Origin: Planctomycetota bacterium
GTDB lineage: Bacteria > Planctomycetota > SZUA-567 > H5-PLA8
Direction: 5' to 3'
Length of the DNA stretch: 64,000 bases
Assembly (NCBI GenBank): GCA_023150555.1
Contig: JAKLKQ010000006.1
Coordinates: 51,726-115,725 of the forward strand
This document shows positions 11,796-29,125 of the stretch, in pieces. The number at the start of each line of letters is the position of its first letter. Within the stretch, counting starts at the first letter, position 1. The notes beneath the pieces were generated by a model. That model had not been told where the DNA came from, did not search any database, and saw only the letters and a list, made by a program, of their open reading frames with translations. The translations under genes were made by a program, and so were the position numbers.

Positions 11796-13382
11796 ATGGC
11801 ACTCCTGGAACAGATTCTCTCGTACAGCGGCATGCTCGTGGGCGGCGCGGTGCTGCTGGTGCTTGCGGCGCTGCTGCTGGTCTCCCTGCTCAGCGCGTTT
11901 CTGCGGCCCGCGTCGGTGAGCGAGGTCCTCAGCGACCTGCGCGCGATCCGCGAACGCGACCCGGCGGCCGAAGGCTGGATCGCGGCGATGTTCTATCCCG
12001 GCTGGTGGGCGCTCTCGGGGCACCGCCTGGTGGCCAACCCGCTCTACCGCATCGGGCTGCGCACGCCCGCGCGGCTGGTGAACTTTCTGCTGCGCCTGCT
12101 GACCGGCACGGACATCCATCCCGGCGCGAAGTTCGGGCGCGGGATCTTCATCGACCACGCGCACGGCGTGGTCATCGGCGAGACGGCCATCGTCGGCGAC
12201 AACGTCACCATCCTGCACCAGGTCACGCTGGGCGGCACCGGCAAACAGACTGGCAAGCGCCACCCGACCGTCGAGGAAGGCGTGCTGATCTCGGCGGGCG
12301 CGAAGGTGCTGGGCAACATCGTCGTCGGCAGGAACGCGAAGATCGGCGCGGGCTCGGTGGTCGTGCGCGAGGTCCCGCCCGAAAGCACCGTCGTCGGCGT
12401 GCCAGGCCGCGTGGTCGTCAGCGCCGGCAAGCGCATCCCCAGCGTGACGCTGGACCAGACCGACCTGCCGGACCCCATCGTCGAGCGCCTGATGGCCCTG
12501 CAGGAGGAGCTGAAGAGCTGGGAGAAGAAACTCGAGGAAGACGAAGTTGAGCTGCATCGCATCGGCGGGCGCGCCAGGCGCGACGTGCTGGCCGAGATCG
12601 TCGAGCACAAGAAGACCGAGGTCGCCGCCGCGAAGGGTCTTTGTCCGCTGGATGCACTCCGCGGCACGCCGGGCAAGCGCGGCGCTGCGCGGAGTTTTCA
12701 TGCCGCACTGAAGGCCGAGGGCCTCTCGCTGATCGCCGAGATCAAGAAGGCCAGCCCCAGCGGCGGCCTGCTGCGCGCCGACTTCGATCCGAAGGCGATC
12801 GCGAAGATCTACGAGCATGCGCACGCCGCGGCGCTGAGCGTGTTGACCGACGAGAAATATTTCCAGGGGAAGCTGGATTACCTGGCCGAGGTTCGCGCGG
12901 CCGCGGCGCTGCCGCTGCTGCGGAAGGATTTCATCATCGACGAGTACCAGGTCGTCGAGGCCGCGCGCGCGGGCGCCGACGCCGTGCTGCTGATCGCCGC
13001 GTGCCTGAACGATTCGCAGCTGAAGGGCTATCGCGAGCTGGCCGAACGCGAGGGCCTGGACGCCCTGGTGGAAGTCCACGACGAGGCGGAACTCGAGCGC
13101 GCGCTCGCCAGCGGCGCGAAGATCCTGGGCATCAACAACCGCAACCTGAAGACGCTCAAGACCGACCTCGAGACGACCTTCCGGCTGCTCGACAAGCTCG
13201 ACCCGAAGACCCGCGCCGGCCTGGCCGTCGTCAGCGAGTCGGGCATCAAGACCCACGCCGACATCGAGCGCCTGCTGCACGCGGGCGTCGACGCGGTGCT
13301 GATCGGCGAAACCTTCATGCGCGCGCCCGATATCGGCGCAAAGGTCCGTGAGCTGCTCGGCGTGGGCCAGTATTCGATCTGA
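11796..13382 (+). CDS. Serine O-acetyltransferase (CysE) fused to indole-3-glycerol-phosphate synthase (TrpC); start uncertain (possible GTG near 11915)
   Basis: N-terminal half has the CysE hexapeptide core DIHPGAKFGRGIFIDHAHGVVIGETAIVGDNVTILHQVTLGG. C-terminal half has IGPS motifs LIAEIKKASPS, SVLTD..YFQG, LRKDFI, LGINNRNL and SESGI. One uninterrupted 528-codon ORF. Confidence 0.75.
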   Translation: MALLEQILSYSGMLVGGAVLLVLAALLLVSLLSAFLRPASVSEVLSDLRAIRERDPAAEGWIAAMFYPGWWALSGHRLVANPLYRIGLRTPARLVNFLLRLLTGTDIHPGAKFGRGIFIDHAHGVVIGETAIVGDNVTILHQVTLGGTGKQTGKRHPTVEEGVLISAGAKVLGNIVVGRNAKIGAGSVVVREVPPESTVVGVPGRVVVSAGKRIPSVTLDQTDLPDPIVERLMALQEELKSWEKKLEEDEVELHRIGGRARRDVLAEIVEHKKTEVAAAKGLCPLDALRGTPGKRGAARSFHAALKAEGLSLIAEIKKASPSGGLLRADFDPKAIAKIYEHAHAAALSVLTDEKYFQGKLDYLAEVRAAAALPLLRKDFIIDEYQVVEAARAGADAVLLIAACLNDSQLKGYRELAEREGLDALVEVHDEAELERALASGAKILGINNRNLKTLKTDLETTFRLLDKLDPKTRAGLAVVSESGIKTHADIERLLHAGVDAVLIGETFMRAPDIGAKVRELLGVGQYSI

Positions 13383-13420: not shown

Positions 13421-16414
13421 GTGATACTTTACCTTCTTACAACCTATTCGAAACCGGAGGGTGCCGCCGTGGCCGAAGAGCGCGAGATCAACCTGTCCGA
13501 GAAGTTCCCCGACATGACGCCGCTACGCGGCGCGCCGTCGCTGGGCACCATCAACGGCATCGGCGTGACGCTGACCGGCCGGCGCGACTTCGACGCCGAG
13601 ACCGGCACCTACGTGAAGACCCGCAGCCTCTGCTTCCTGTTCATCCCGCTGGTCCCCATGGACGCTTATCGCGTCGCCGACGCACGCGGCGGCGGCTGGT
13701 ATTTCATCGGCAAGGTGCCCCTCTCGGGCTTCTGCAAGATCTGGAACCTCTGCATCCTGGGCCTGATCCTGGCGTGCATCGGCGCCGGCTACATCAACAG
13801 CTACTACGCCAGCCCCGAGTACGTGAACGGCCAGCGCCTGACCGAAGCCCGAAACCTGAGCGGCAACGGAAAGACGGAGGAGGCGCTGGGCAGGTACGAG
13901 GCCGTCGCCGCCAGCGGCACCAGCCACGCCAGCACCGCGAAGGCCGAAGCTCTGGAACTCTTCCAGGAACGCGTTGGCCAGTGCGACGCCGCCGAGGCCA
14001 AACGCCTGTTCGCTTTCCTCGCCGCGCGCCGCAACGCGCCGGCGCATCTGGTACCCGACCCGACGGCCGCCGAAGCCGCCGCTGCCGCCGTGGCGCGATA
14101 TAAGGAGCAGGACCCGCTGGCCGCGTTCGAGATCCACCGCCTGGCGCGCGTCTTCACGCCCAACCCGCCGGATCCCGACCCGGACTACGAGCCCCTGCTG
14201 GAGGCCGCGCGCGCCGCGCACCCCGAGAACAACGAGCTCGCCATCGAGGCCGCCGCGAATTTCGAGAAACTCGGCCAGCTGGACAAGGCCAAGGCCACTC
14301 TGGAACCCCTGGCCGGGAAGCTGGGCGCCACCGAAGGCGCGCGCATCCTGGGGCAGCTCTACGCGCGGGAGGAGCAGCACGAAAAGGCCTTCGCGCTGCT
14401 GGAACCCTACGCGCAGCAGCACCTGAGCGCCCTGCACGCGGCCGACGACGCCTATGAGAAAGCGCTGAAGGCCAGCAACGACCGCGCCATCGACGAACTC
14501 AACCGCAAACTGACCACCGACCCGTGGGTGCGGCAGTACCAGAAGCAGGACAAGGCGGGCCAGGAGAAGATGGTCAGCGAATACGTCCTGGAACGCATGA
14601 AGGTGGACTCCGCGCTCCATGCGGTTCAGGAGAAACTGGCCCAGGCAGCTTCGACCGTCCCGGTCGCGCTGGATCTGGGCATCGTCCGCCTGTACCGCGG
14701 GCGCGAGATAAAGGATCCCGAGGCCAAGAAGAAGGAGCTCGAGGCCGCCGAGAAGGTCTTCCTCTCCATCCGCAACGTCGCGGGCGAGTCCGACGCCTAC
14801 CGCATGTACTACGGACAAGTCCTGTACTGGCTCGGGAAGCACGAGGAAGGAAAGGCGGCCTTCGACGAATTGCTCGCCTCCAAGAACCGCAACCACGAGA
14901 CGCTGCTGGGCGTCGGCAATACCCTGCGCGAAATTGGCGCGCATTCCGAAGCCAACGTGTTGTTCGAGGAAGCCTACAACCAAGCTACGAAGGTGGAGGA
15001 GAAGCAGCAGGCCGCCGCCATGCGCCGCCTTTCCGCCAACGACATGGACGACCACATCCTCTGGCTGGGGCGCTGCGACACCAGCAAGCCGCACGTCCAG
15101 GCAAGCCTCGAGGCCGCCAAGGGCAAGAAGATGCTCAGCGACGGCGACCGCGCGGGCGCCATACCGCACCTGAAGGCGAGCATCGCGGCGTGGGAGAAGC
15201 TCCCCCGCAGCGACGGCTCCCTGAACGAGATCGCGCTTGCCCAATCCTCGCTCTTCTATGCCAGCGGCGACCCCGAAGCGTTCCGCCAGGGCGCAAAGCT
15301 GCTGCGCGAGGCCGTGGGCCTGAATCCCAGCGACAGCATTCTGGTCCTGAACGCGGCGTCCAGCCTGCTCGAGGCATCCGTCCTGGACGAGGTGTCCGGA
15401 AAGCTCAATTTCACGCACGGCGGCATCTCCATCGACCTGGATCTCCTCGACTATTTCGCCGGCGAACAGAAGGACGAGCAGGCGCTGCGCGCGCGGATGC
15501 AGGCGCGCACCGACTTTAAGGACGCCAAGAGCCTGTATCGCAAGGCGATTCTGCTGGCACCCCGGAATGCCGGCGGGTACGGCACCTTGCGCGAAATCTA
15601 TGCGTGGGAAGACGATCTCGACGCGCTCAAGGAACTAAAGACTGCGCTCAAGGGCATCGAACTGGTCGGCGAGGACCAAAAGGCGAAGACGCTGGCGTTC
15701 TACGCGGGTTCGAACGACCCCGCCATCATTGGCGATTGGGACAAGGCGCTCGCTACGGGACGCACGCAGCTCGCCTCGGTTCCTAAGGATAAGGAAGCGA
15801 TGACCTGGGTCGTCACGGCCGGCACCTACATCCAGACGTGCCTGGCCGCGCACGCGATAGGCAATCCCATCGAACTGGAGCCGCTGTTCCGGATGGCCCA
15901 ACAGGCCTACGCCATGGCGCCCAGCAACGGCACCTCCAGCATCCTTTCCACCATGCACCTTTACCGCGCCTTCGAACGCCTGGCGGCCGCCAACCCGGCC
16001 TTCAAGGAGGGGCAGGAGCGGAACAGCCGCGTGATGAGCCGGACGCAGTACTTCGCGCTGGCCCTGGAACAGATACCGGCACTGCGCGATCCGGCCCGTC
16101 AGGACCCCGACGTGAAGGCAGCCCTGGACCTGATGCGCGAGCAGGACAGGAAGTTCCCGAAGCACCCCAGCGCGTGGAAGTGGGCGGTCTGCAAATACCT
16201 CGATCCAGAGGAAGCCGAAGTCATCGCCAAGGACCTGCACGCGGATCCGATTTCGCCGATCGCGCAGGACGTCCGCGAGATGATCTATCCCATGTCCGGA
16301 AACCATGCCCTGTACGGCCTCTGGCTGCGGCGCGTGCTGGGGCAGGAAGGCGAAGGCCTGGCGCTGTACGAAGCCTGCCGCAAGCGCGGCGTGCCTTTAC
16401 CCGAAAAGCCGTAG
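13421..16414 (+). CDS. Large TPR-like repeat protein with N-terminal membrane anchors (hypothetical)
   Basis: Two hydrophobic helices near the N-terminus, followed by ~850 aa of alpha-helical repeat sequence. Protein-like composition throughout. Start codon uncertain. Confidence 0.6.
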   Translation: MILYLLTTYSKPEGAAVAEEREINLSEKFPDMTPLRGAPSLGTINGIGVTLTGRRDFDAETGTYVKTRSLCFLFIPLVPMDAYRVADARGGGWYFIGKVPLSGFCKIWNLCILGLILACIGAGYINSYYASPEYVNGQRLTEARNLSGNGKTEEALGRYEAVAASGTSHASTAKAEALELFQERVGQCDAAEAKRLFAFLAARRNAPAHLVPDPTAAEAAAAAVARYKEQDPLAAFEIHRLARVFTPNPPDPDPDYEPLLEAARAAHPENNELAIEAAANFEKLGQLDKAKATLEPLAGKLGATEGARILGQLYAREEQHEKAFALLEPYAQQHLSALHAADDAYEKALKASNDRAIDELNRKLTTDPWVRQYQKQDKAGQEKMVSEYVLERMKVDSALHAVQEKLAQAASTVPVALDLGIVRLYRGREIKDPEAKKKELEAAEKVFLSIRNVAGESDAYRMYYGQVLYWLGKHEEGKAAFDELLASKNRNHETLLGVGNTLREIGAHSEANVLFEEAYNQATKVEEKQQAAAMRRLSANDMDDHILWLGRCDTSKPHVQASLEAAKGKKMLSDGDRAGAIPHLKASIAAWEKLPRSDGSLNEIALAQSSLFYASGDPEAFRQGAKLLREAVGLNPSDSILVLNAASSLLEASVLDEVSGKLNFTHGGISIDLDLLDYFAGEQKDEQALRARMQARTDFKDAKSLYRKAILLAPRNAGGYGTLREIYAWEDDLDALKELKTALKGIELVGEDQKAKTLAFYAGSNDPAIIGDWDKALATGRTQLASVPKDKEAMTWVVTAGTYIQTCLAAHAIGNPIELEPLFRMAQQAYAMAPSNGTSSILSTMHLYRAFERLAAANPAFKEGQERNSRVMSRTQYFALALEQIPALRDPARQDPDVKAALDLMREQDRKFPKHPSAWKWAVCKYLDPEEAEVIAKDLHADPISPIAQDVREMIYPMSGNHALYGLWLRRVLGQEGEGLALYEACRKRGVPLPEKP

Positions 16415-16487: not shown

Positions 16488-17924
16488 ATGAGCAAATCCG
16501 AAAGTCAAAAATTGCTGTACTTGGATCCGTTCAGCGGGATCGCCGGCGACATGCTCGTCGGCGCGCTGCTGGACCTGGGCCTGAATCTCGAGTTCCTCGA
16601 GGCCGAGCTGAAGAAGCTGAAGCTCGATGGGTATACCCTTTTCTCCGGACCCGTCCTGCGCGGCGCGATCGCCAGCACCAAGTTCGACGTGCTCATCAAC
16701 GGCCAGACCGAAGCCCAGCACGGTCACGCGCACTGCGGCTGCGATCATGATCATGCCCATTCGCACGACCACGAGCACGAGCACGGCCATTCGCACGAGC
16801 ACGAACATCATCACGATCACAGTCACGACCACGACCATAAGCACGATCATGGGCATCATGATCACGGCCACGGCCATCACCATCATCACCAGCACGGCCA
16901 TGACCACAATCACGAGCATCGCCACGCGCACGACCACCGGCACTTCGGCGACATCAAGAAGATGATCGAAACGAGCGGGCTCAGCGCGGGCGTTAAGGCG
17001 CGGAGCCTGCGCGCGTTCGAACTGCTTGCCGAAGCCGAGGGCCGCATGCACGGCCAGGCGCCGGAGCAGGTCGCCTTCCACGAAGTCGGCGCCGTCGACA
17101 GCATCGTGGACTTCGTCGGCGCGTGCATCGGGCTCGAAGCGCTGGGCATCACCGAAGTCCTCTGCGGGCCCATCGCGCTGGGCGGCGAAGGCGGCGGCTA
17201 CGTCGACTGCGCGCACGGCAAGCTTCCCGTCCCGGCCTTCGCCACGCTGGAGCTGATGAAGGGCCTTCCAGTGCGCCCCTGCGCCGTGAACAAGGAACTC
17301 ACCACGCCCACCGGCGCCGCGCTGCTGAAGGCGCTGGTCACCGACTTCGGCCCGCTGCCGCCGATGCGCATCGAGAAGATCGGCTACGGCGCGGGCACGC
17401 GCAACGATCCGAACATCCCCGTGCCGAACGTCCTGCGCGCCGTACTGGGCACGTTGGACGCGAAGGCTTCCGGCGACGACGCGGAGTCCGACACCATCGT
17501 CGAGATCCAGGCCAATGTCGACGACGCCGCACCCGAAGTGCTGGGCTACCTCAGCGAGAAGCTGCTGGCGGCCGGTGCGCTGGATGTGTTCTTCACGCCG
17601 GTGCAGATGAAGAAGTCGCGCCCCGGCACGCTGGTGACGGTGCTCGCCGACGCCGCGCACTTCGACGCGCTCGCCGAAGCGCTCTTCCGCGAGACGCCCA
17701 CCTTCGGGCTGCGCTACGAGCACAAGCAGCGCCGCAAACTCGCGCGCGAGACCGTGACCGTCGAGACGCCCTGGGGTACGGTGCGCGTGAAGCTGGGCCG
17801 CTGGCGTGGCGCGTTCATGAGCGCGCACCCCGAGTACGAGGACTGCAAGGCGCTGGCCGAGCAGAAGGGCGTGCCGCTGCGCCAGGTCATCGACGCCGCG
17901 CGCGCGGCCGCCCCGAATGCGTAA
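16488..17924 (+). CDS. larC: LarC (nickel-pincer cofactor nickel-insertion protein, DUF111 family) with a ~75-residue His/Asp/Glu-rich insertion
   Basis: N-terminus LLYLDPFSGIAGDMLVGALLDLG and a conserved C-terminal domain. The insertion runs HGHAHCGCDHDHAHSHDHEHEHGHSHEHEHHHDHSHDHDHKHDHGHHDHGHGHHHHHQHGHDHNHEHRHAHDHRH. Confidence 0.85.
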   Translation: MSKSESQKLLYLDPFSGIAGDMLVGALLDLGLNLEFLEAELKKLKLDGYTLFSGPVLRGAIASTKFDVLINGQTEAQHGHAHCGCDHDHAHSHDHEHEHGHSHEHEHHHDHSHDHDHKHDHGHHDHGHGHHHHHQHGHDHNHEHRHAHDHRHFGDIKKMIETSGLSAGVKARSLRAFELLAEAEGRMHGQAPEQVAFHEVGAVDSIVDFVGACIGLEALGITEVLCGPIALGGEGGGYVDCAHGKLPVPAFATLELMKGLPVRPCAVNKELTTPTGAALLKALVTDFGPLPPMRIEKIGYGAGTRNDPNIPVPNVLRAVLGTLDAKASGDDAESDTIVEIQANVDDAAPEVLGYLSEKLLAAGALDVFFTPVQMKKSRPGTLVTVLADAAHFDALAEALFRETPTFGLRYEHKQRRKLARETVTVETPWGTVRVKLGRWRGAFMSAHPEYEDCKALAEQKGVPLRQVIDAARAAAPNA

Positions 17925-18155: not shown

Positions 18156-19391
18156 GTGGTCAACGCCTGGGAGTTTTCGATGCGCTGGTACTCTGCGGTG
18201 AGTGAGGAGATCGGACCGTCCGCGGCGGTGAAGGAATGCGTCGCGCAGTTGCGCCTGGGCCTGGGCGACGCGCGCCCCGACGTGCTCTTCGCCTTCGTCT
18301 CCTCCTTTTATCAGGAAGCGTATCCCCTGCTGGCGGCGGCGTTGCGCGAGCAGCTAAAGCCCGCCCACCTGCTGGGCTGCACGGCCGGCGGCGTGCTGGG
18401 CAGCGGGCGCGAGATCGAAGACGCGCCGGGTCTGGCGCTGGCTGCCGCGGTGATGCCCGGCGTCGAGATCCATCCCTTCCACTTCCGCAACGACGAGCTT
18501 CCGGACCTCGACGGCGGCCCGCGCGCATGGGAGCAGGCCGTGGGCGTGAAGGCAGCGGCGCAGCCCGAGTTCGTCGTGCTGGCCGACCCGTGGTCGATCC
18601 GCGCGGAGGAACTGCTGAGCGGCCTCGACTTCGCGTTCCCGAACTCGGCGAAGATCGGCGGGCTGGCCAGCGGTGCACGCCAGCCGGGGCACAACGTGCT
18701 GTGGCTCGACGACGTCGACCACCTGCAGGGCGCCGCGGGCCTGGCCTTCACCGGCAACGTGCGCATCCAGCCGCTGGTCGCGCAGGGATGCAAGCCGCTC
18801 GGAAAGCCGATGCGGATCACCGACGCCGAGAAGAACGTGCTCTACGCGCTGGACGGCAAGCCCGTGATGGAAGTCCTCGCGGAGCTGGTCGAATCGAGCA
18901 GCGCGGATGACCGCGAACTGATCCGCACCGCGCTGTTTCTGGGCATCGTGATGGACCCGCTGAAGTCCGGCGCGCCGGGCGCGGGCGACTTCCTGATCCG
19001 CAACCCGCTGGGCCGCGAGCCGTCCCGCGACGGCCTGGTGGTCGGCGCGCTGCTGCGCAAGGGCATGACCGTGCAGTTCCACGTGCGCGACGCCAACGCC
19101 GCGCGCGCGGACCTGGCCGCCGTGCTGCGCGGCTACACCACCGCCCTGCTGCAGGAGGGCCGGGGCGAGGCGCTGAGCCAGCCGCCGGCCGGCGCGCTGC
19201 TGTTCTCGTGCCTCGGCCGAGGCCAGCACATGTACGGCGAGAAGGACCACGACTCGAAGGCCTTCCACGCGTTGGTCGGCGACGTGCCGCTGGCCGGCTT
19301 CTTCTGCAACGGCGAGATTGGGCCCGTCGGCGGGACGACCTACGTGCACGGCTTCACCAGCTGCTTCGGCTGCTTCCGCGCGAAGAGCTGA
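18156..19391 (+). CDS. FIST (N and C) domain sensory protein
   Basis: FIST_C-like C-terminus FFCNGEIGPVGGTTYVHGFTS. About 400 aa. Alternative start MRWYS at 18180. Confidence 0.7.
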   Translation: MVNAWEFSMRWYSAVSEEIGPSAAVKECVAQLRLGLGDARPDVLFAFVSSFYQEAYPLLAAALREQLKPAHLLGCTAGGVLGSGREIEDAPGLALAAAVMPGVEIHPFHFRNDELPDLDGGPRAWEQAVGVKAAAQPEFVVLADPWSIRAEELLSGLDFAFPNSAKIGGLASGARQPGHNVLWLDDVDHLQGAAGLAFTGNVRIQPLVAQGCKPLGKPMRITDAEKNVLYALDGKPVMEVLAELVESSSADDRELIRTALFLGIVMDPLKSGAPGAGDFLIRNPLGREPSRDGLVVGALLRKGMTVQFHVRDANAARADLAAVLRGYTTALLQEGRGEALSQPPAGALLFSCLGRGQHMYGEKDHDSKAFHALVGDVPLAGFFCNGEIGPVGGTTYVHGFTSCFGCFRAKS

Positions 19392-19413: not shown

Positions 19414-20691
19414 TTACGAGGTCTTTGCCGAAGGCGCCTGCCGGATCAGCTCGATTGCGGTCTCGGCGAGTTGCTCGCCGCCGCCCGCCGCCAGCACGGT
19501 GCCGGGGAAGGTGGCCTCGTAGCCGCCGCGCTCGTAGGCCTCGCGGTGCGGAATATACCCCAGCGCGCCGTTGGCATACGCGACCACCAGCGCCTTGCGC
19601 GGATGCGCGCCTTCCTTGACCGCCAGCCCCAGTTCCACGAAGAACTCGCCGGGGATGGTCGCGATCGAGCATTCGTCGAGGTCGAAGATCTGGACCTCCG
19701 CGCGCGCACAGCCATTCCGCTCCATCTTCGCCAAAACCGACGGGATGGCCTGGTCGTACAGCGCCGGATTGATGAAGCGCTGCGTGCCGCGCGAGGTCCC
19801 GGCGATCTGCTCCGCGCTGGCCCGGAAGTACGGCAACTCGACGGTGCGCGCGCGCGCCGCGAGGACCGCCTCCTTGCGCCACGTCATCTTCTCCAGGGCC
19901 TGCTGCACGTCGGCGGCCAACATCGCGCCGATCTCGCCGATGCCCAGCTTGCGGCCGTCGTTCGCCGGATCCGACGTGGCGATGTTCCCGGCGGCGCCGT
20001 TCAGGAAGACGGCGTCGGGCACGCCGCGTTCCGCCAGGAGCTTCGCCATCGCGCCGGGCCAGCCGGCGCTGATCTTTCCGTTGATCCCGTTGTCCGCCGG
20101 GTGGCAGGCGTAGTTCACCCAGACGCCGAGCACCTTGCCGCGCGCGTTGCGGAAGCCCAGCACCGCCACCTCGGGGTCGACGGGCCCCTCGTAGCAGAGC
20201 GCTCCGGGATCGCTGAACTTCCCGTGCGTCCGGGTCGTGCCGTCGCGCTGCCGCACGCGGCGGTTGTGCGCGAAACGGAATTCGGGCACAGACGCGAGGC
20301 CCCACTCGACCGGCTCAAGGCGCTCCAGGGCCTGCCCGAACGCGGAGACCAGCGCGTCCCGTACGGTGGCGGCGTAGGCCGGATCGGGCTTCGCCTCGAA
20401 CGATTCGGAGATCGCGCCGCTGGCGTGGTTGTGCGTGGCGGCGACCACCAGGCGCCCGCCCGGCAGGCCGTAGCGTTCCTCGATGGCGCGCCGCACGGCG
20501 CAGACCATCGTCCAGGGCGCCCGCACGCCGTCGATCTGCAGCAGGCCCAAGCGCTCGCGCCCGCTTTCCAGCACGCAAGCGCGCACAAAGACCGGATCCA
20601 GGACCTCGGTCCCCGAAACGTGCTTGATCCAGCCCCCGAGGCAGATACCCAGCGGCGGCGTCACGTCAATCGCGGCAAATCCGGCTTTCAT
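19414..20691 (-). CDS. Neutral/alkaline ceramidase-like hydrolase (N-terminal domain family)
   Basis: Start MKAGFAAIDVTPPLG...ATHNHASGAI matches the neutral ceramidase N-terminal signature. The ORF track extends to 20940, but the ATG at 20689-20691 overlaps the upstream DegT stop (ATGA). Confidence 0.6.
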   Translation of the reverse strand: MKAGFAAIDVTPPLGICLGGWIKHVSGTEVLDPVFVRACVLESGRERLGLLQIDGVRAPWTMVCAVRRAIEERYGLPGGRLVVAATHNHASGAISESFEAKPDPAYAATVRDALVSAFGQALERLEPVEWGLASVPEFRFAHNRRVRQRDGTTRTHGKFSDPGALCYEGPVDPEVAVLGFRNARGKVLGVWVNYACHPADNGINGKISAGWPGAMAKLLAERGVPDAVFLNGAAGNIATSDPANDGRKLGIGEIGAMLAADVQQALEKMTWRKEAVLAARARTVELPYFRASAEQIAGTSRGTQRFINPALYDQAIPSVLAKMERNGCARAEVQIFDLDECSIATIPGEFFVELGLAVKEGAHPRKALVVAYANGALGYIPHREAYERGGYEATFPGTVLAAGGGEQLAETAIELIRQAPSAKTS

Positions 20692-21950
20692 GACAGGCTC
20701 TCCAGATTCGACATCACCTTGCGGATGCCCTGCGCGGTGCGGTCCACCGCCTCGGCGCCGTTCGGGTACCGCAACGGCACCGTCATACCCGTGTGCGTGT
20801 CGCAGTGGCGCCGAGCGGAGGGGAAGTTCCCCATCTTGTAGTCCACGGACCGCGCGTGCGGGCTCGACCAGGGATGGCCGTGGCCGAAGCCGTCCTTGGC
20901 CTGGAAGATGGTCATCTCGGGCAGCGGGAACGACTGCCACACGCTCGTCTGGACGCCCTCCGCCTGCAGCGCCTTAACGATCCGGTCGCGCGCTTCCTTC
21001 GGCTTCGCGCCCAGCACGTCGGGCTCGAAGCGCAGCGTGTAATTATACCAGTTCGGCAGCGCGCCTTCGAAGCTCCGCGGCAGGATCAGCCCCGGCGTGC
21101 CTTCCAGCGCCGCGGCCAGGCGCGCCGCGTTCTCGCGCTGCCGCGCCAGGTTGCGGTCCAGGCGCTTGAGCTGGCTGCGGCCGAAGGCGGCGACCAGGTC
21201 GCTCATGCGGTACATCCAGCCCAGCGCGTAGACGTGGTAATCGCGGTCCTGGTGCGGCGTTCGCGATTCGCCGAAGGACCAGAGCTGCTTCGCCGTCGTC
21301 AGCATCGCCTCGTCGTTGGTGACGAACATGCCGCCTTCGCCGGCGCACAGGCACTTGTTCTGGTTGAAGCTGAAGGCCGCGCAGTCGCCCCAGGTGCCGA
21401 CCTTGCGCCCGCGGTACTCGGCGCCGTGCGCCTGGCAAGCGTCCTCGATGACCTTCAGGCCGCGGCGCCGCGCAATCTCGAGCACGCGATCCATCGCGAC
21501 GGGAAGCCCGTGCAGGTGCACCACCAGGATCGCCCTGGTCTTTTCGGTAATCGCGGCCTCGATCTTGTCCACGTCGATGTTCATCGTGTCGAAATCAATG
21601 TCGGCGAAGACCGGGACGCAGCTGTGGTGCAGGACGCAGGTGGCCGACGACGACCACGAGTACGCCGGCACGATCACTTCGTCGCCGGTGCGGCAGCCGC
21701 AGGCCGCGATACACATGTGAAGGGCGGCGGTGCCGGAGTTGGCGGCCACCGCGTGGCGGTTCCCGTTCCAGGCCGCGAATTCCCGCGCGAAGGCCTCGAC
21801 GTTGGGGCCACAGGCGTGCTTGCCGCCGTCCAGCGATGCCAGGACCATGCGGCGGTCCTCGTCGTCGATCTGGGGCCAATCCCGGATCAGGCCGTCCGTC
21901 ACGGCCTTGGGCCCACCGTCGATCGCCAGCCGTTCCTGTACGCCTTGCAT
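20688..21950 (-). CDS. DegT/DnrJ/EryC1/StrS-family PLP-dependent (sugar) aminotransferase
   Basis: Fold-type I aminotransferase motifs (GDEVIVPAYSW, AFSFNQNKCLCAGEGGM). About 420 aa. Confidence 0.85.
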   Translation of the reverse strand: MQGVQERLAIDGGPKAVTDGLIRDWPQIDDEDRRMVLASLDGGKHACGPNVEAFAREFAAWNGNRHAVAANSGTAALHMCIAACGCRTGDEVIVPAYSWSSSATCVLHHSCVPVFADIDFDTMNIDVDKIEAAITEKTRAILVVHLHGLPVAMDRVLEIARRRGLKVIEDACQAHGAEYRGRKVGTWGDCAAFSFNQNKCLCAGEGGMFVTNDEAMLTTAKQLWSFGESRTPHQDRDYHVYALGWMYRMSDLVAAFGRSQLKRLDRNLARQRENAARLAAALEGTPGLILPRSFEGALPNWYNYTLRFEPDVLGAKPKEARDRIVKALQAEGVQTSVWQSFPLPEMTIFQAKDGFGHGHPWSSPHARSVDYKMGNFPSARRHCDTHTGMTVPLRYPNGAEAVDRTAQGIRKVMSNLESLS

Positions 21951-22040: not shown

Positions 22041-22949
22041 GTGGGGTACGATCTTGCGCGGTGCACCATGGCAACCAAGAAGACGCGAAGCAACCGGCGC
22101 GCCCCGCCGCCCTCGCCCTGGCTCCGGGAATGGCAGGACGCCCTGGCCGCGTGGCCCGCGATCCAGCGCCTGGACATCATTTCCGTCGGGGACGTGTGGG
22201 GCCACGCCTTCCACACGACGCCGCGCCACGAACTGCTACACGTGCTGGAAGGCCGCGCCGAGATCCAGTTCCGCGGGCGCCTCTTTCACGTCGCCACGGG
22301 CGACACCTTCGTGATTCCCCAAGGCACGCCGCACCGCGACATCCGCCAGGCCGGCGCCGACTACCGCGTGCTGTACGTCTTCTTCGAGTGGCCCAAGGGT
22401 GCGCGGCTGCTGCGCAGGCTGAAAGGCGAGACCCTGACGCGGCTGCCGCAGGCCGCCAAGGCGCACGTTCACGCGATGATGAACGAACTCGCCGACGAGT
22501 ACCAAGGCAAGGACCAGACTGCCGTCGAGCGCATGCACCTGCTGCTGCTCGAGATCCTGCTCGCGCTGGGACGCTACGCGCAGCCGGCGCCGCCGGCCGC
22601 CAGCAACGCGCGGCGCGCCGCCGCCGAACGGCAGCGCCGCCGTCTCGCGGAAGCCGCCTGCGAATACCTGAAGGCTCACTACGCGGAAGAGATCAGTCTG
22701 GAGGCGCTGGCCGAAAGCCACGGCGTCAGCCCGTTCAACCTCTCGCGCGGGTTCAGCCAGGAGTTCGGAACCTCGCTCTTCGCCATGCTGGCGCGCATCC
22801 GCATGGACCGCGCCCGCGAGCTGCTCGCGTCCGGGCACAGCGTGAAAGAGACCGCTGCCGCCGTCGGGTATGCCAACGGCAACTACTTCGCGAAGGTCTT
22901 CCGGCGCGTGACGGGGCGCTCGCCCAGCGAGTACTTGGCCGCGCGGTGA
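22041..22949 (+). CDS. AraC-family transcriptional regulator with N-terminal cupin domain
   Basis: C-terminal double HTH (GVSPFNLSRGFSQEFGTSLFAMLARIRMDRARELL...VGYANGNYFAKVFRRVTGRSPSEY). Divergent from the DegT operon. Alternative start at 22068. Confidence 0.8.
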   Translation: MGYDLARCTMATKKTRSNRRAPPPSPWLREWQDALAAWPAIQRLDIISVGDVWGHAFHTTPRHELLHVLEGRAEIQFRGRLFHVATGDTFVIPQGTPHRDIRQAGADYRVLYVFFEWPKGARLLRRLKGETLTRLPQAAKAHVHAMMNELADEYQGKDQTAVERMHLLLLEILLALGRYAQPAPPAASNARRAAAERQRRRLAEAACEYLKAHYAEEISLEALAESHGVSPFNLSRGFSQEFGTSLFAMLARIRMDRARELLASGHSVKETAAAVGYANGNYFAKVFRRVTGRSPSEYLAAR

Positions 22950-23029
22950 AGTTGCGCGCTCCTTCTTGTAAGTCCTTATTTGAGGATCCTAGATAGGGGA
23001 CGAAATTAGTGCTAATATTAAGGCAAGCT

Positions 23030-23130
23030 ACTTTGTGCTGTGTAACATTTTGCACGTAGAGAACATGTTTATTGAAAACGAGTTATGAAGTAAATTGGAA
23101 AAATGTTTCACGTGAAACATTATGTCAATA
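23030..23130 (+). repeat. AT-rich conserved non-coding element, copy 1 (candidate sRNA or regulatory repeat)
   Basis: Bipartite: TGTGTAACATTTTGCACGTAGAG, then ~45 nt, then AAAAATGTTTCACGTGAAACAT (a perfect 18-bp palindrome). About 70% identical over ~110 nt to the minus strand of 48395-48530. Confidence 0.5.
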
Positions 23131-23159
23131 TTAGGTATATCGCGTAGGTCGCACAGGAC

Positions 23160-23765
23160 TTACTTCAACGCCTTCTCAAGGTCCTTCAGCACCTCGTACG
23201 GCCCGCGGTAACTCTTGCCCGCGAAGCTGCTGCTGAGTACCTGCCCGGTCCCATCGAGCATCTCGAGATCGGGAATGCCGTTGCCCGCGTAGCGTTCCTG
23301 CAACCCGCTGGCCTTGATCTGGTCGTGCTTCACCGCCAGCCACGGCATCTTGTACTCGTCGATGTACTCCTGCATCTTTGCGGTGTCGGCATCGGAGCTG
23401 ACGAAGACGACCTCGAAATCCTTCCCGCCGCCATGCGCATTGTAGAACTCCACCAGCTTGGGCGTGAATTGGTGGCACGGCGGGCACCAGCCCGCGCTGA
23501 AGTACAGCAGCACGAAGCGCTTGTCCTTCAACGCATCGGTCGAAATCGCCGCACCGTGGGCGTCGGCCAGCTTGCCGTCGAGCATGGAGCGCAAGCCGGC
23601 GTGGTCGCCCGTAGCCTGAGTTTGCGCGCCGGCCTGGGTCTGCGCTGCGGGATCGACCGCCTTGCTCTCGCTCGCGGGAGTGCCGACGATGGCGCGTACC
23701 CCGAGGAAGATCAGGCCCGCCGCCAGCGCGAGAAAGAAGAGCGCCCAGGAAGTCTTCATGTGCAA
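23160..23765 (-). CDS. TlpA-like thioredoxin-fold thiol-disulfide oxidoreductase (membrane-anchored or secreted)
   Basis: N-terminal hydrophobic anchor, a WCPPC active-site motif, and a thioredoxin-like fold of ~200 aa. Confidence 0.8.
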   Translation of the reverse strand: MHMKTSWALFFLALAAGLIFLGVRAIVGTPASESKAVDPAAQTQAGAQTQATGDHAGLRSMLDGKLADAHGAAISTDALKDKRFVLLYFSAGWCPPCHQFTPKLVEFYNAHGGGKDFEVVFVSSDADTAKMQEYIDEYKMPWLAVKHDQIKASGLQERYAGNGIPDLEMLDGTGQVLSSSFAGKSYRGPYEVLKDLEKALK

Positions 23766-24009: not shown

Positions 24010-26610
24010 ATGCTGGAACTCGACCGCGCCAAGACCTTCTACGCGACCCTGCCCGAACGCGTGCGCAACGTGCGCTCGAAGCTGGGCCGGCCGCTGACGA
24101 TGACCGAGAAGGTGCTGTACAGCCACCTCGAGGACATCGGCGGGCAGGCCATCGAGCGCGGCAAGAGCTTCCTGATGCTGAACCCCGACCGCGTCGCGAT
24201 GCAGGACGCCACCGCGCAGATGGCGATCCTGCAGTTCATCAGCTCCGGCCGCAAGGCCGTCGCCGTGCCGACCACCGTGCACTGCGACCACCTGATCCGC
24301 GCGCAGAAGGGCGTCGACCAGGACATGGCCGTCGCGCTGAAGGAGAACAAGGAAGTCTTCGAATTCCTCTCCAGCGCCGCGCGGAATTACGGCATGGGCT
24401 TCTGGAAACCCGGCGCGGGCATCATCCACCAGGTGGTGCTCGAGAACTACGCCTTCCCCGGCGGCCTGATGATCGGCACCGACAGCCACACGCCCAACGC
24501 CGGCGGCATGGGCATGCTCGCGGTCGGCGTTGGCGGCGCCGACGCGGTGGACGTGATGGTCGGAATGCCCTGGGAACTGCTCTGCCCGAAGCTGGTCGGC
24601 GTGCGCCTGACCGGCAAGCTCAGCGGCTGGACCAGCAGCAAGGACGTGATCCTGAAGATGCTCGAGCTGCTCACCTGCGCCGGCGGCACGAACAAGATCA
24701 TCGAGTACTTCGGGCCGGGCGTCGAGAGCATCAGCCTGACCGGGCGCGGCACCGTCACCAACATGGGCGCCGAACTGGGCGCGACGACGAGCGTCTTCCC
24801 CTGCGACGAACGCACCGCCGCGTACCTGCGCGCTACGCGCCGCAAGGACGTCGCCGAATGGGCGCTGGCGAATCGCGGGTCGATCAACGCCGACCCCGAG
24901 GTCCACAAGGATCCGAAACAGTTCTTCGACGAGTTCATCGAGATCGACCTCGACAAGCTCAAGCCGCGCATCACCGGACCGCACACGCCCGACAAGGTGC
25001 GCCCGGTCTCGCAGATGCAGGCCGACATCGAGAAGGAAGGTTACCCGCGGGAGCTGAAGGTCGGCCTGATCGGCAGCTGCACCAACAGCAGCTACGAGGA
25101 CATTGGCCGCGCCGCGCACGTCGCGCGCCAGGCGCTGGCGAAGGGCCTGAAGTCCAAGGTTCCGCTGCTGATCACGCCCGGCAGCGACCAGGTCTACGAC
25201 ACGCTCGAGCGCGACGGATTGCTGAAGCCCTTGCGCGAGATCGGCGGCACGATCCTCGCCAACGCCTGCGGCCCGTGCATCGGGCAGTGGAAGCGCGAGG
25301 ACGTCCAGATGGACGCGCCCAAGTCCGGCGACCAGGGCGAAGGCACCGCCATCGTCACCAGCTTCAACCGGAATTTCCGCGGCCGCAACGACGGCCTTAA
25401 GCAGACGCTCGCCTTCATCACCAGCCCCGAACTGGTCGTCGCGATGAGCCTCAGCGGCAAGCTCGGCTTCGACCCCGAACGCGACGCCGTCAACGGCGGC
25501 GGCGTGAAACTCGAGGCGCCCTACGGCGACGACCTGCCCGCGAAGGGCTTCCAGTTCAACGACAGCGGTTTCCAGGCCCCGGCCGCCAAGGGCGGCGGCG
25601 CCGTCGCGGTGAAGCGCGGCAGCGACCGGCTGCAGCTGCTCGAGCCCTTCGCGCCCTGGGAAGGCAGCGACCTCTCCGGCCTGCGCGTGCTGGTGAAGGC
25701 GCAGGGCAAGTGCACCACCGACCACATCTCCGCCGCGGGCAAGTGGCTGACCTACCGCGGGCACCTGGACAACATCTCCAACAACCTCTTCCTCGGCGCG
25801 GTGAACGCCTTCACCGGCGAGACCGGCGCGGGGACCAACCAGCGCAGCGGCGAGAAGGGCAAGTCCTTCCCCGAGATCGCGCGCGACTACAAGGCGCACG
25901 GCATCGGCTGGGTGGCCTTCGGCGACCACAACTACGGCGAAGGCAGCAGCCGCGAGCACGCCGCGCTGGAACCGCGCCACCTGGGCGGGCGCGCTGTTGT
26001 CGTGCGCAGCTTCGCGCGCATCCACGAGACGAACCTCAAGAAGCAGGGCATGCTCGCGCTGACCTTCGCCGACCCCGCCAACTACGACAAGGTCCGCGAA
26101 GGCGACACCGTCGCGATCTCTGGGCTAAAGACCTTCGCGCCCGGCAAGCCGTTGACCCTGACCTTGACGCACACCGACGGCACAAGCGATTCGTTCCGCG
26201 TCCTGCACAGCTACAACGCCGAACAGATCGCGTGGTTCAAAGCCGGCAGCGCGCTGAACATCATCCGCAAGAATTTCTCCGCAGCCGCCGGCGCCGCGCC
26301 CGCTGGTAAAGCCGCCGCCAAGCCGAAGGCCGCCAAGAAGAAAGCGAAGGCAGCCGCAAAGAAGACGGTCGCGACGAAGAAGAAGCCCGGGAATCACAAG
26401 GGCGGCTACGGTCGCGGCACCGACACCAAGAAGCGCCGCAAGCCCATCGGCAACGGCACCCAGCGCGGGAAGAAGGGCCGCAGCCTGAACGCGAAGGCCG
26501 CCGCCCGCGCGCGCCGCTACAAGTCCAAGCCAAAGGGCAAGACCGCGAAGGTGCTGCCGCGCGGCAAGAAGACGCCGTCGAACGTCAAGCGCGCGCGCTA
26601 CAAGCGCTGA
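24010..26610 (+). CDS. acn: Aconitate hydratase (mitochondrial-type aconitase family) with a ~105-aa Lys/Ala/Pro/Arg-rich C-terminal tail
   Basis: Aconitase motifs across ~760 aa, including the domain-4 [34 protein letters not shown], and the cluster-ligand region IGSCTNSS...[10 protein letters not shown]. The tail runs [26 protein letters not shown]...RARYKR. Confidence 0.9.
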
Positions 26611-26638
26611 GACCCACCAGAGCCCCGTCGAAAGCGCG

Positions 26639-26675
26639 AACCGGCGGCACCCGTGCCGCCGGTTCGATTTTTTCA
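26639..26675 (+). terminator. Rho-independent terminator after the aconitase gene
   Basis: Stem AACCGGCGGCA/TGCCGCCGGTT with loop CCCG, followed by cgaTTTTTTc. Confidence 0.65.
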
Positions 26676-26750: not shown

Positions 26751-28331
26751 ATGGCCGAGGAAATGCCCGTCCGCCGCAACAAGATCAACCTGAAGGACTT
26801 CGAGAAGAAGGTCCGCCTGCGCAGGCTGCGCCTGAAGGACCACGACGACATCGTGAAGCTGCAGCTCATCTGCTTCCCCACGATGCCGCCGTGGACGAAG
26901 GATCAGTTCGAAAGCATGCTCAAGCACTTCCCGCAGGGGCAGCTCTGCGTGGAGTTTAACGGCAAGATCGTCGCCTCGTCCAGCAGCCTGATCCTGGACT
27001 TCGACGAGTACCAGGACTGGCACGACTGGCGCCTGATCGCCGACAGCGGCTACATCCGCAACCACGACCCCGACGGCGACACGCTGTACGGCATCGAGAT
27101 CATGGTCGATCCCAAGTTCCGCGGCATGCGCCTGGCGCGGCGCCTGTACGAGGCCCGCAAACGCCTCTGCCGCGAGAACAACCTGCAGCGCATCGTCATC
27201 GGCGGGCGCATCCCCGGCTACAACAAGCACCGCAGCAAGATGACCGCGGAACAATACGTCGAGAAGGTCCGCAACCACGACCTGTACGACATGGTCCTGA
27301 CCACGCAGCTCGCCAACGGCTTCGCGCTGCGCAAGCTGATTCCCGAGTACCTGCCCAGCGACGAGGATTCGGCCGGCTACGCCACGCAGATGGAATGGAC
27401 CAACGCGGACTACCAGCCCGACGAGAAGGCCTGGCACGCGACGCCGCGCAGCGTGCGCATCTGCACCGTCCAGTACCAGATGCGGCCGGTGAGGAACTTC
27501 GCCGAGTTCGCGCAGCAGGTCGAGTTCTTCGTGGACGCCGCCAGCGACGACCGCGCGGACTTCGTGCTCTTCCCGGAACTCTTCACGCTGCAGCTGCTCA
27601 GCTTTACGCCGACCAAGCGCCCCGGCGAGGCCGCGCGCAAGCTCGCCGAGTTCACGCCGCAGTACATCGAACTCTTCAACCGCCTGGCCGTGAAGTACAA
27701 CGTCAACATCGTCGGCGGCAGCCACTTCACATTGGAGGACGACCACCTGCGCAACGTCGCGTACCTGTTCCGCCGCGACGGCACGCTGGGCAAGCAGGAC
27801 AAGCTTCACGTCACGCCCAGCGAGCGCAAATGGTGGGGCGTCGAAGGCGGCGATTCCATCCGCGTCTTTGGCACCGACAGCGGCAAGATCGCGATTCCGG
27901 TCTGCTACGACATCGAGTTCCCCGAGCTGATCCGCGTCGCCGTGCAGAAGGGCGCGCAGATCCTCTTCTGCCCCTTCAACACCGACAGCGAGCACGGCTA
28001 CCTGCGCATCCGCTGCTGCGCGCAGGCGCGCTGCGTCGAGAACCACGTCTACGCGGCCATCGCCGGCTGCACCGGAAACCTGCCGATGGTCGAGAACGCC
28101 GACATCCACTACGCGCAGTCCGGCATCTTCACGCCCTGCGACTACCCGTTTACGCGCGGGGGCATCGGCGCCGAATGCAACGCAAACATCGAGACCATCG
28201 TCACCCACGACGTGAACCTCGACACGCTCCGCCGCCACCGCTTCACCGGTTCCACGCGCAACTGGAACGACCGCCGCACGGACCTGTATCACGTCAGCTA
28301 CCAGGATCCCGACGGCAAACTGAAAATCTGA
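26751..28331 (+). CDS. Bifunctional GNAT N-acetyltransferase / carbon-nitrogen hydrolase (nitrilase superfamily) protein
   Basis: N-terminal GNAT fold, then a CN-hydrolase domain with a Glu-Lys-Cys triad context (FPELF ... CYDIEFPE). Confidence 0.8.
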
Positions 28332-28531
28332 ACGACAGGAAAGTGATAAAAGTTGATAGATTATAGATGAGAGATAATTGACGAACAGCTTCCCGATCGG
28401 TTCTTAATGCATCTCGATGTTCGAATCTCTCCTCTCTAATCTATTACCTCAAATCTCGAGTCCATTGTTTCGCCGGCATCGCTTGAAATCTGCCCACGTC
28501 CCGGCATCCTAGCTTTCAAAGGAGGCCCCCC

Positions 28532-29125
28532 ATGGCCAACGAACTTGCCGACTTCGAGAAGTGCTACCGGGAAGGCTTCAAACCCTGGGACAGCGGCGTG
28601 GCCTGCCCCGAGCTTCTGCGCGCGCTCGATGCCGGCGTGCTGAAGGGCAAGTCGCTGCTCGAGATCGGCTGCGGGACCGGCACCAACGCGATCGAACTGG
28701 CGCGGCGCGGCTTCCAGGTCACCGCGACCGATTTCGTCAAGCAGGCCATCGACGCCGCGTGCGCGAAGGCCAAGACCGCGAAGGTGAAGATCGATTTCCG
28801 CGTCGGCGACGTGCTGAAGGACGACTTCGGCGGGCCATACGACGCGATCTTCGACCGCGGCGTCTACCACCACATCCGCAAGGTCAACCTGCCGCGCTTC
28901 ATCGAGACCATCACCAAGGTCACGCGCAAGGGCTCGCGCTGGCTGAGCCTGGCCGGCAACGCCAAGGAACAGCACGACCCCGGCCCGCCGACGGTGAGCG
29001 AAAAGGACCTGCGCAAGGAACTCTCGTCGCACTTCGAGATCCTGGAGCTGCGCGAGTTCCGCTTCGGCACCGACAGCGAGGAGTTCCGCCCGCTGGCGTG
29101 GTCGATCCTGATGGAAAGGAAGTAG
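28532..29125 (+). CDS. SAM-dependent methyltransferase (thiopurine S-methyltransferase/TehB-like)
   Basis: Motif I LEIGCGTGTNAIELA and a small ~197-aa class I MTase. Confidence 0.8.
   Translation: MANELADFEKCYREGFKPWDSGVACPELLRALDAGVLKGKSLLEIGCGTGTNAIELARRGFQVTATDFVKQAIDAACAKAKTAKVKIDFRVGDVLKDDFGGPYDAIFDRGVYHHIRKVNLPRFIETITKVTRKGSRWLSLAGNAKEQHDPGPPTVSEKDLRKELSSHFEILELREFRFGTDSEEFRPLAWSILMERK

Follow-up and report, generated by a model that had tools for sequence, protein, structure and literature searches.

A polycationic C-terminal tail with a conserved terminal module on planctomycete mitochondrial-type aconitases

Basic tails and moonlighting aconitases

Basic disordered tails are already known from a number of bacterial proteins. 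Among prokaryotic proteins, Lys-rich low-complexity regions occur preferentially in those that bind DNA and RNA (PMC6821194), the PAKKA tails of Mycobacterium smegmatis Ku modulate DNA binding (PMC3553676), and the polycationic disordered region of MDP1 compacts DNA (PMC10810275). The bacterial tails that resemble histone H1's C-terminal domain (CTD) and that have been studied bind DNA or polyphosphate (polyP) non-specifically (PMC9239181, PMC3553676, PMC10810275, PMC6821194). Here, we describe a polycationic tail at the C-terminus of an aconitase encoded in a 64-kb stretch of planctomycete DNA, the whole of which is referred to below as the window. As in Pseudomonas AlgP and PhaF, mycobacterial HupB/MDP1 and Ku, Streptomyces HupS and TopA, and chlamydial Hc1, a disordered, strongly basic, Ala/Lys/Pro-rich C-terminal extension is attached to a folded domain and, as in that group, tail length and repeat number vary among relatives. 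The folded domain of the bacterial proteins with H1-CTD-like tails is a DNA-handling or granule protein, whereas that of the window protein is an enzyme of central metabolism; unlike theirs, its tail contains few true repeats, and the module at its end is conserved and non-repetitive. New here are thus the host of the tail, a tricarboxylic acid (TCA) cycle enzyme with a moonlighting history, and the embedded, unannotated small-protein family, found fused, adjacent or unlinked.

Aconitases associated with nucleic acids offer the other comparison. Yeast Aco1p binds mitochondrial DNA (mtDNA) and is a member of the nucleoid (reviewed in PMC11431987), the Caulobacter RNA degradosome includes aconitase (PMC3045602), and IRP1, AcnA, AcnB and CitB bind mRNA. 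The window protein is the same enzyme, of the same mitochondrial-type family as Aco1p, and a nucleic-acid association is for it only inferred. The moonlighting aconitases make their contact through the globular or apo enzyme, without a polycationic tail, and the IRP-type precedent for RNA binding belongs to another aconitase family, for which the window protein scores below the TIGR01341 cut-off. Schizosaccharomyces pombe Aco2 likewise joins a mitochondrial-type aconitase to a C-terminal small basic protein that is a separate gene product elsewhere (PMC11431987). The fused part of Aco2 is a recognisable bL21, in contrast to the window module, which comprises about 45 aa, matches no ribosomal or other Pfam or NCBIfam family and is not predicted to adopt a compact fold.

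The aconitase core and its tail

The Aconitase (residues 33-483) and Aconitase_C (residues 560-688) domains are the sole Pfam matches of the 866-aa protein, in which the winged-helix domain of linker histone H1 (Pfam Linker_histone) was not found. Against the NCBIfam equivalog TIGR01340 (aconitase_mito), the protein scores 1053.4 bits for a cut-off of 825.35, with all 745 profile positions (1-745) aligned to residues 11-752. Residues 11-753 are collinear, without large gaps (958 bits), with positions 17-748 of the 753-residue mitochondrial aconitase (mAcn) in the structures 1c96 and 7acn, which are among the solved bovine and pig enzymes. Its two 10-residue cluster-binding motifs are identical to those of solved mAcn. 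In an alignment of 81 homologous sequences, all three cysteine ligands of the [4Fe-4S] cluster (C357, C420 and C423) are unchanged throughout, as are their surrounding motifs and many active-site positions, and the full-length AlphaFold model built with this alignment has a predicted local distance difference test (pLDDT) score mostly above 90 over the core. The TIGR01341 (AcnA/IRP-type) profile gives 283.9 bits in three fragments, below its cut-off of 945, and IRP1 structures align to residues ~97-342 only. Judged by sequence, the core is a bona fide mitochondrial-type aconitase, every family feature tested having been found; the enzyme part looks fully functional and ends at about residue 756. 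Since the alignment with solved mAcn stops at residue 753, everything after about residue 756 lies beyond the known fold.

The remainder of the reading frame continues in frame with the core to a TGA codon at 26608-26610. The exact 866-aa sequence is deposited at NCBI (MCK6470980.1) as 'MAG: aconitate hydratase [Planctomycetes bacterium]'. A terminator hairpin lies 27 nt 3' of the stop codon, with a folding energy of -35.6 kcal/mol (z = -4.0 versus shuffled sequence). The preliminary description of this gene, as an aconitase carrying a Lys/Ala/Pro/Arg-rich C-terminal tail, is borne out: a core extending to about residue 756 is followed by 110 in-frame residues with a charge of +39.

This tail (residues 757-866) has a pI of 12.0 and is composed of 25% Lys, 21% Ala, 12% Gly, 11% Arg and 6% Pro, with hydrophobic residues accounting for 8%; the core, for comparison, contains 6% Lys and has a net charge of +5. 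Based on an alignment of the tails of close homologs, it can be divided into a variable Ala/Lys/Pro-rich front, a linker and a conserved terminal block (Table 1). The CTD of histone H1.4 is made up of 41% Lys, 33% Ala and 13% Pro. The likeness of the tail to such domains is one of composition and concerns the front part, where Ala, Lys and Pro reach 36%, 30% and 7% over residues 757-800; the tail is also disordered in the AlphaFold model. The H1-like character ascribed earlier to the whole tail holds, as regards composition, for these front ~45 residues, but the terminal ~45 residues form a conserved module. The suggested resemblance to H1 or chlamydial Hc1 does not extend to homology: none was detected, and the tail has no Pfam match at E <= 10; for Hc1 and Hc2, neither tail nor module matched the Hc1 family in Pfam or NCBIfam at the same threshold. 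The KPAA tetrapeptide array of AlgP and PhaF is absent from the window tail, in which Tandem Repeats Finder reported a single weak repeat, a 21-nt unit in 1.9 copies (26324-26363), while some relatives (P0005 and P0038/L001) carry PAKKA- or AKKAVAKKAKP-like repeats.

The terminal block has the consensus K-(G/P)-x-S-L-x-A-K-A-x-x-R-V-K-A-Y-K-S-K-P-(R/K)-G-K-(S/T)-A-K-V-L-P-x-G…P-x-x-V, with L, K-P-x-G, A-K, P and V invariant. On this alignment, the last ~45-50 residues of the tail are a conserved sequence module, not low-complexity filler. They do not form an AT-hook with its Arg-Gly-Arg-Pro core, as no GRP tripeptide occurs and the conserved core reads K-P-(R/K)-G-(K/V)-(S/T)-A-K in the alignment. 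Scans of the tail, the module and the related stand-alone proteins described below returned no Pfam or NCBIfam family at E <= 10, bL21 and other ribosomal-protein families included, and the PDB yielded nothing for the module, either by profile sequence search or by a Foldseek fold search with the module model. In the full-length model, the tail has a pLDDT of 32-55 and a single short helix at residues 826-836. A model of the module by itself has a helix at 826-839 (pLDDT ~85), an extended stretch and a second short helix at 857-864, with a predicted template-modelling (pTM) score of 0.37. In these models, the isolated module would be a helix-linker-helix and not a compact domain, and the tail has the hallmarks of disorder, with one short element predicted to fold on binding. 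The idea of an autoinhibitory or structural peptide docked on the enzyme found no support, since the tail has low pLDDT throughout and makes no contact with the core in the full-length model.

Several lines of evidence bear on whether the tail is genuine. An independent Logan contig (L012) carries a gene 95% identical to that of the window, fused in the same way and flanked by the same neighbours. Between the two genes, the ratio of nonsynonymous to synonymous substitution rates (dN/dS, Nei-Gojobori) is 0.116 in the core and 0.216 over the whole tail; of the two parts of the tail, the front gives 0.23 and the terminal module 0.19. In-frame G+C content at third codon positions (GC3) is similar in the two regions (tail 0.90, core 0.94), and AT skew peaks at 0.69 exactly over the tail (26300-26599). 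Because Lys codons are A-rich, a Lys content of 25-30% in a genome of ~67% GC opposes mutational bias. Independent assemblies from NCBI, JGI, ENA and Logan repeatedly contain the fused form, and the window frame contains neither a start codon nor a Shine-Dalgarno sequence ahead of the module. A frameshift artefact was rejected on the basis of the in-frame GC3, the architecture of L012 and dN/dS; the frameshifted downstream gene envisaged at the outset as an annotation artefact was likewise set aside, the fusion being present in independent assemblies. These comparisons indicate a genuine, translated tail, both parts of which are maintained by purifying selection.

Distribution of the tails and of the module

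Among the 120 best homologs of the window protein (at least 61% identity), counted as tailed when the C-terminal tail reached at least 35 aa, 37 carry a tail, with a mean length of 84 aa and a mean net charge of +31.5. When the cores are placed on a neighbour-joining tree, the tailed sequences group almost entirely in a single clade, labelled Planctomycetota. A tail-less sub-clade nested within it suggests secondary loss, and the members bearing the module are scattered over both halves of the clade. Basic tails are absent from the aconitases of most other phyla. A second, distant tailed clade is labelled Ignavibacteria/Ignavibacteriota/Bacteroidota and was sampled through P0101 and its 120 best relatives (75-100% identity, all 790-981 aa). 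All 121 are tailed, over 38-101 aa (median 60 aa) and with a median net charge of +27, and their tails contain 28% Lys, 18% Arg and 14% Ala. The planctomycete module is absent from all 121, and a terminal motif of their own, (K/R)-N-(L/S)-R-(K/R)-(K/R), ends 69 of them, where shuffled tails would give an expectation of 0.6. It thus appears that aconitase has gained a polycationic tail with a conserved terminal element at least twice. The tail also proved lineage-specific, a point that the preliminary description had put forward for comparison: it occurs in almost the whole Planctomycetota aconitase clade and in few other phyla, with a probable independent gain in Ignavibacteria/Bacteroidota. 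No other open reading frame (ORF) in the window or in 106 kb of related loci (~150 genes) has a comparable poly-Lys stretch.

The extra length of two homologs is N-terminal. In P0130 (981 aa), it amounts to ~170 non-aconitase residues that look like an over-extended start call, and P0030 (825 aa) has no C-terminal tail. Length alone therefore slightly over-counts tailed aconitases.

The module profile scores 63-79 bits in the window protein, in P0001-P0004, P0013-P0015 and P0029, and at loci L007, L009 and L010, and nothing in the other tailed aconitases examined. At least 11 distinct planctomycete sequences thus carry the module fused to aconitase. Database searches with this profile, by word index and by exhaustive comparison with 1.84 billion cluster representatives, revealed small proteins consisting of the module only, namely P0121 (54 aa) and P0124 (64 aa, NCBI HLX64483.1), while P0122 and P0123 look like contig-edge fragments of aconitase tails. 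The P0121 gene is found on six contigs from five sequencing accessions. Five contigs resolve the end of the upstream gene, and on all of them this is a tailed aconitase that ends 59 nt upstream of P0121; the aconitase measures 874-878 aa on the two contigs where it is complete and keeps its own long Ala/Lys/Pro tail, ending …GKRK*. P0121 is read in a frame different from that of the aconitase, with AAGGAG 7 nt before its ATG; no terminator was found in the 59-nt gap, and a hairpin was found 3' of P0121. On this arrangement, P0121 is predicted to be co-transcribed with the aconitase. Three P0121 haplotypes differ from one another by synonymous third positions only, with 9 differences from the reference copy; since all of these differences are synonymous, P0121 is concluded to be a genuine gene under constraint.

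P0124 and P0127 (84 aa, from the same cluster) have no aconitase beside them; in several samples they occupy another conserved neighbourhood, flanked by a metallo-beta-lactamase-fold gene on one side and a convergent saccharopine-dehydrogenase/ArgZ-like gene on the other, and their C-terminus is acidic (…EEYTPSEEALENAES). The window tail would represent a fusion state linking aconitase and a small basic protein, or the other arrangements fission states; the neighbour-joining tree of the cores favours neither direction. The possibility raised at the outset, that orthologs might carry a separate small basic protein instead of a tail, is realised in part: a 54-aa gene does follow the aconitase in one lineage, but that aconitase keeps its own tail and the fusion is widespread. 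As the fused state is seen in many independent assemblies, the separate gene points to fusion or fission, not to an artefact. The tailed, module-less P0006 and P0005 have no module gene downstream in any frame. A degenerate module in the tail of P0035, a sister of the split lineage, was considered and rejected (hhalign probability 0.2%).

The reach of these searches differs. The word-indexed search returned three small proteins and missed the tailed aconitases that score 63-79 bits locally, so that its silence on other host proteins is weak evidence; such an index can evidently overlook a module placed at the end of a long protein. The exhaustive search found only two small proteins in the 1.84 billion representatives, among which tailed aconitases are hidden behind tail-less ones, so that the module may still occur on other long proteins. 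When DNA was scanned with back-translated motifs, every copy recovered was fused to aconitase (one from GTDB genomes, two from JGI metagenomes); the sensitivity of these scans was incomplete, as they missed JGI sequences known from the protein search. In the searchable literature, no description was found of polycationic tails on bacterial aconitases or of the module.

Table 1. Features of the tailed aconitase gene and of related sequences
Feature	Position	Strand	Basis and remarks
Complete aconitase gene with tail	24010..26610	+	ATG start, 866 codons plus TGA; ORF list, TIGR01340 match, identity to MCK6470980.1
Catalytic core, residues 1-756, mitochondrial-type aconitase, all four domains	24010..26277	+	Pfam, alignment to solved mAcn, Fe-S cysteines, AlphaFold
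Ala/Lys/Pro-rich segment, residues 757-800, H1-CTD-like composition	26278..26409	+	A 36%, K 30%, G 11%, P 7%, charge +13; pLDDT 32-45
27-nt (9-codon) in-frame insertion relative to L012	26386..26412	+	Codon alignment; L012 reads KKKG, a nine-residue gap, GTD; placement in Gly-rich stretch approximate
Gly/Lys/Arg/Thr-rich linker, residues 801-817	26410..26460	+	Composition; length and sequence differ among homologs
Conserved basic module, residues 818-866	26461..26607	+	A2 profile 65 bits in window; homologous to stand-alone 54-64 aa planctomycete proteins
Intrinsic terminator, 13-bp G+C-rich stem with 10 G-C pairs, then T-run	26637..26673	+	Terminator scan, RNA fold
P0121 small basic protein gene, 54 aa	L001 2868-3032 (also L002-L006)		Homologous to tail end
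P0124 and 84-aa cluster mate P0127, stand-alone basic proteins	L008 5001-5195 (also L015-L017)		Homologous to tail end
Second-clade proteins P0101, P0078, P0098, P0114, P0081, P0128-P0243	Outside window		

The genes surrounding the aconitase (AraC regulator, thioredoxin-like, GNAT + CN-hydrolase and TPMT methyltransferase) offer no hint of function, and their conservation extends only as far as the closest relative. Two intergenic stretches, 22850-23300 and 28250-28550, have a GC content of 47-50% against a background of ~67%; the former separates the AraC-family regulator from the thioredoxin-like gene immediately upstream of the aconitase. Further upstream, and in the same orientation as the aconitase, are genes for a 630-aa protein with multiple 4Fe-4S domains (9625-11514, +), a LarC-type nickel-insertion protein (16488-17921, +) and a FIST-domain sensor protein (18156-19388, +), none of which has an evident link to the aconitase tail. 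In a 528-aa ORF (11796-13379, +), a complete indole-3-glycerol-phosphate synthase domain (265-520) follows an N-terminal hexapeptide-repeat transferase region (Hexapep ~156-189), an architecture that is unusual for TrpC. Two further ORFs, of 997 aa (13421-16411, +) and 507 aa (19414-20937, -), have a coding-like GC3 and no Pfam match at E <= 1e-5.

Possible functions of the tail

Binding of nucleic acid or another polyanion is the likeliest function of the tail, a proposal drawn from its charge and from analogy and to which we would give about an even chance. The tail would act as an electrostatic tether concentrating aconitase on a cellular polyanion, the likeliest being nucleic acid, in the form of nucleoid DNA or of RNA and ribonucleoprotein. 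Its low-complexity part would provide non-specific affinity and reach, and the module, with a short helix followed by the extended KSKPxGKxAKVLP stretch, might fold on binding and make a more specific contact, for which the modelled combination of a helix and an extended basic stretch is suited. Catalysis would be unaltered, and the benefit would lie in localisation or in a second nucleic-acid-protecting or regulatory role, as in other aconitases. Nucleic acid is the leading candidate because Lys-rich regions are tied to DNA and RNA binding, because of the record of aconitases and because of the shape of the module.

Several points weigh against this proposal. The putative ligand is deduced from charge and analogy, and the module matches no known nucleic-acid-binding family in Pfam, NCBIfam or the PDB. 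That only the aconitase is tailed holds for a sample of ~150 genes. One planctomycete sub-clade has apparently lost the tail and many tailed aconitases lack the module, so that neither part seems indispensable. In addition, the same composition targets AlgP to polyphosphate granules (PMC9239181), and the polyanion may thus not be nucleic acid.

If polyP were the ligand, the tail would bind its granules or chains and place aconitase at or near the granules. The Ala/Lys/Pro composition of residues 757-800 and of the tails of relatives is indeed of the type of the AlgP/PhaF C-terminal domain, and that domain is needed for the spacing of polyP granules, the localisation of AlgP depending on polyP kinases (PMC9239181). 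However, AlgP also binds DNA and is a proposed granule-nucleoid bridge, so that polyP targeting is not cleanly separable from nucleic-acid tethering; with no polyP genes linked to the aconitase gene in the window and no counterpart of the conserved module in AlgP, polyP targeting as such is unlikely. The module could instead be the functional unit, a small basic protein with a role of its own (for instance in association with the ribosome or RNA, or in regulating or binding aconitase) that is merely co-expressed with the enzyme or fused to it by stop loss, with the Lys/Ala/Pro region as a linker. It does exist as an independent gene under strong purifying selection, predicted to be co-transcribed with aconitase in one lineage and unlinked in another, and the eukaryotic precedent, S. 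pombe Aco2, fuses aconitase to mitoribosomal bL21 and is needed for mitochondrial translation (PMC11431987). Such a partner-protein fusion is nevertheless also unlikely, as most tailed aconitases, including the 121 of Ignavibacteria/Bacteroidota, lack the module, which argues that the basic tail is selected in its own right; moreover, no resemblance of the module to any ribosomal or other known family was detected, and AlphaFold predicts no confident contact between it and the aconitase core.

Tethering to membranes is a further way in which a polybasic tail could act, by holding the enzyme on the anionic phospholipids of the cytoplasmic or an intracytoplasmic membrane near membrane-bound TCA and respiratory enzymes. 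A high charge combined with a few hydrophobic positions is a general property of polybasic membrane-targeting tails, and the window tail unites its charge of +39 with a few such positions in the module (L, V, L, Y). Yet it contains neither an amphipathic-hydrophobic helix nor a lipidation motif, its hydrophobic content is low, and the known bacterial Ala/Lys/Pro tails go with nucleic acid or polyP (PMC6821194, PMC9239181), which makes a membrane role very improbable. Finally, the great variation of tail length and sequence among homologs, with frequent indels, is what a neutral low-complexity expansion might produce, and the module is truly a downstream gene in another frame in one lineage, as would suit an assembly or annotation artefact. 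Both are scarcely credible in view of a dN/dS of about 0.2 in both tail parts and a GC3 like that of the core, a Lys enrichment running against the GC bias, the recovery of the fusion from independently assembled data with no initiation signals before the module, and the retention of a tail in every sampled member of the second clade.

Within the proposal of nucleic-acid tethering, the module may be a new family of small basic aconitase partners, fused, adjacent or unlinked, that direct aconitase to a particular nucleoprotein target, for instance the ribosome, RNA or the nucleoid; this more specific suggestion is tentative, and we consider it possible rather than probable. If this suggestion is correct, the independent tails of two groups, each with its own terminal motif, would represent a recurrent, selected placement of mitochondrial-type aconitase on nucleic acid, matching in bacteria what yeast Aco1p does in the mtDNA nucleoid and the S. 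pombe Aco2-bL21 fusion.

The question of why aconitases are so often associated with nucleic acids has for decades been argued from weak, condition-dependent contacts of the globular enzyme, with mtDNA nucleoids, IRE-like mRNAs or the RNA degradosome. Here, two bacterial phyla have what appears to be an obvious polyanion-binding appendage built into the enzyme, which in one of them includes a separable, conserved mini-protein. Such a tail can be deleted, swapped or used as bait, and may thereby offer a handle on what aconitase is brought to, and the split, fused and unlinked forms provide a natural test of whether covalent linkage matters. In these lineages, the annotation 'aconitate hydratase' would hide an extra functional region.

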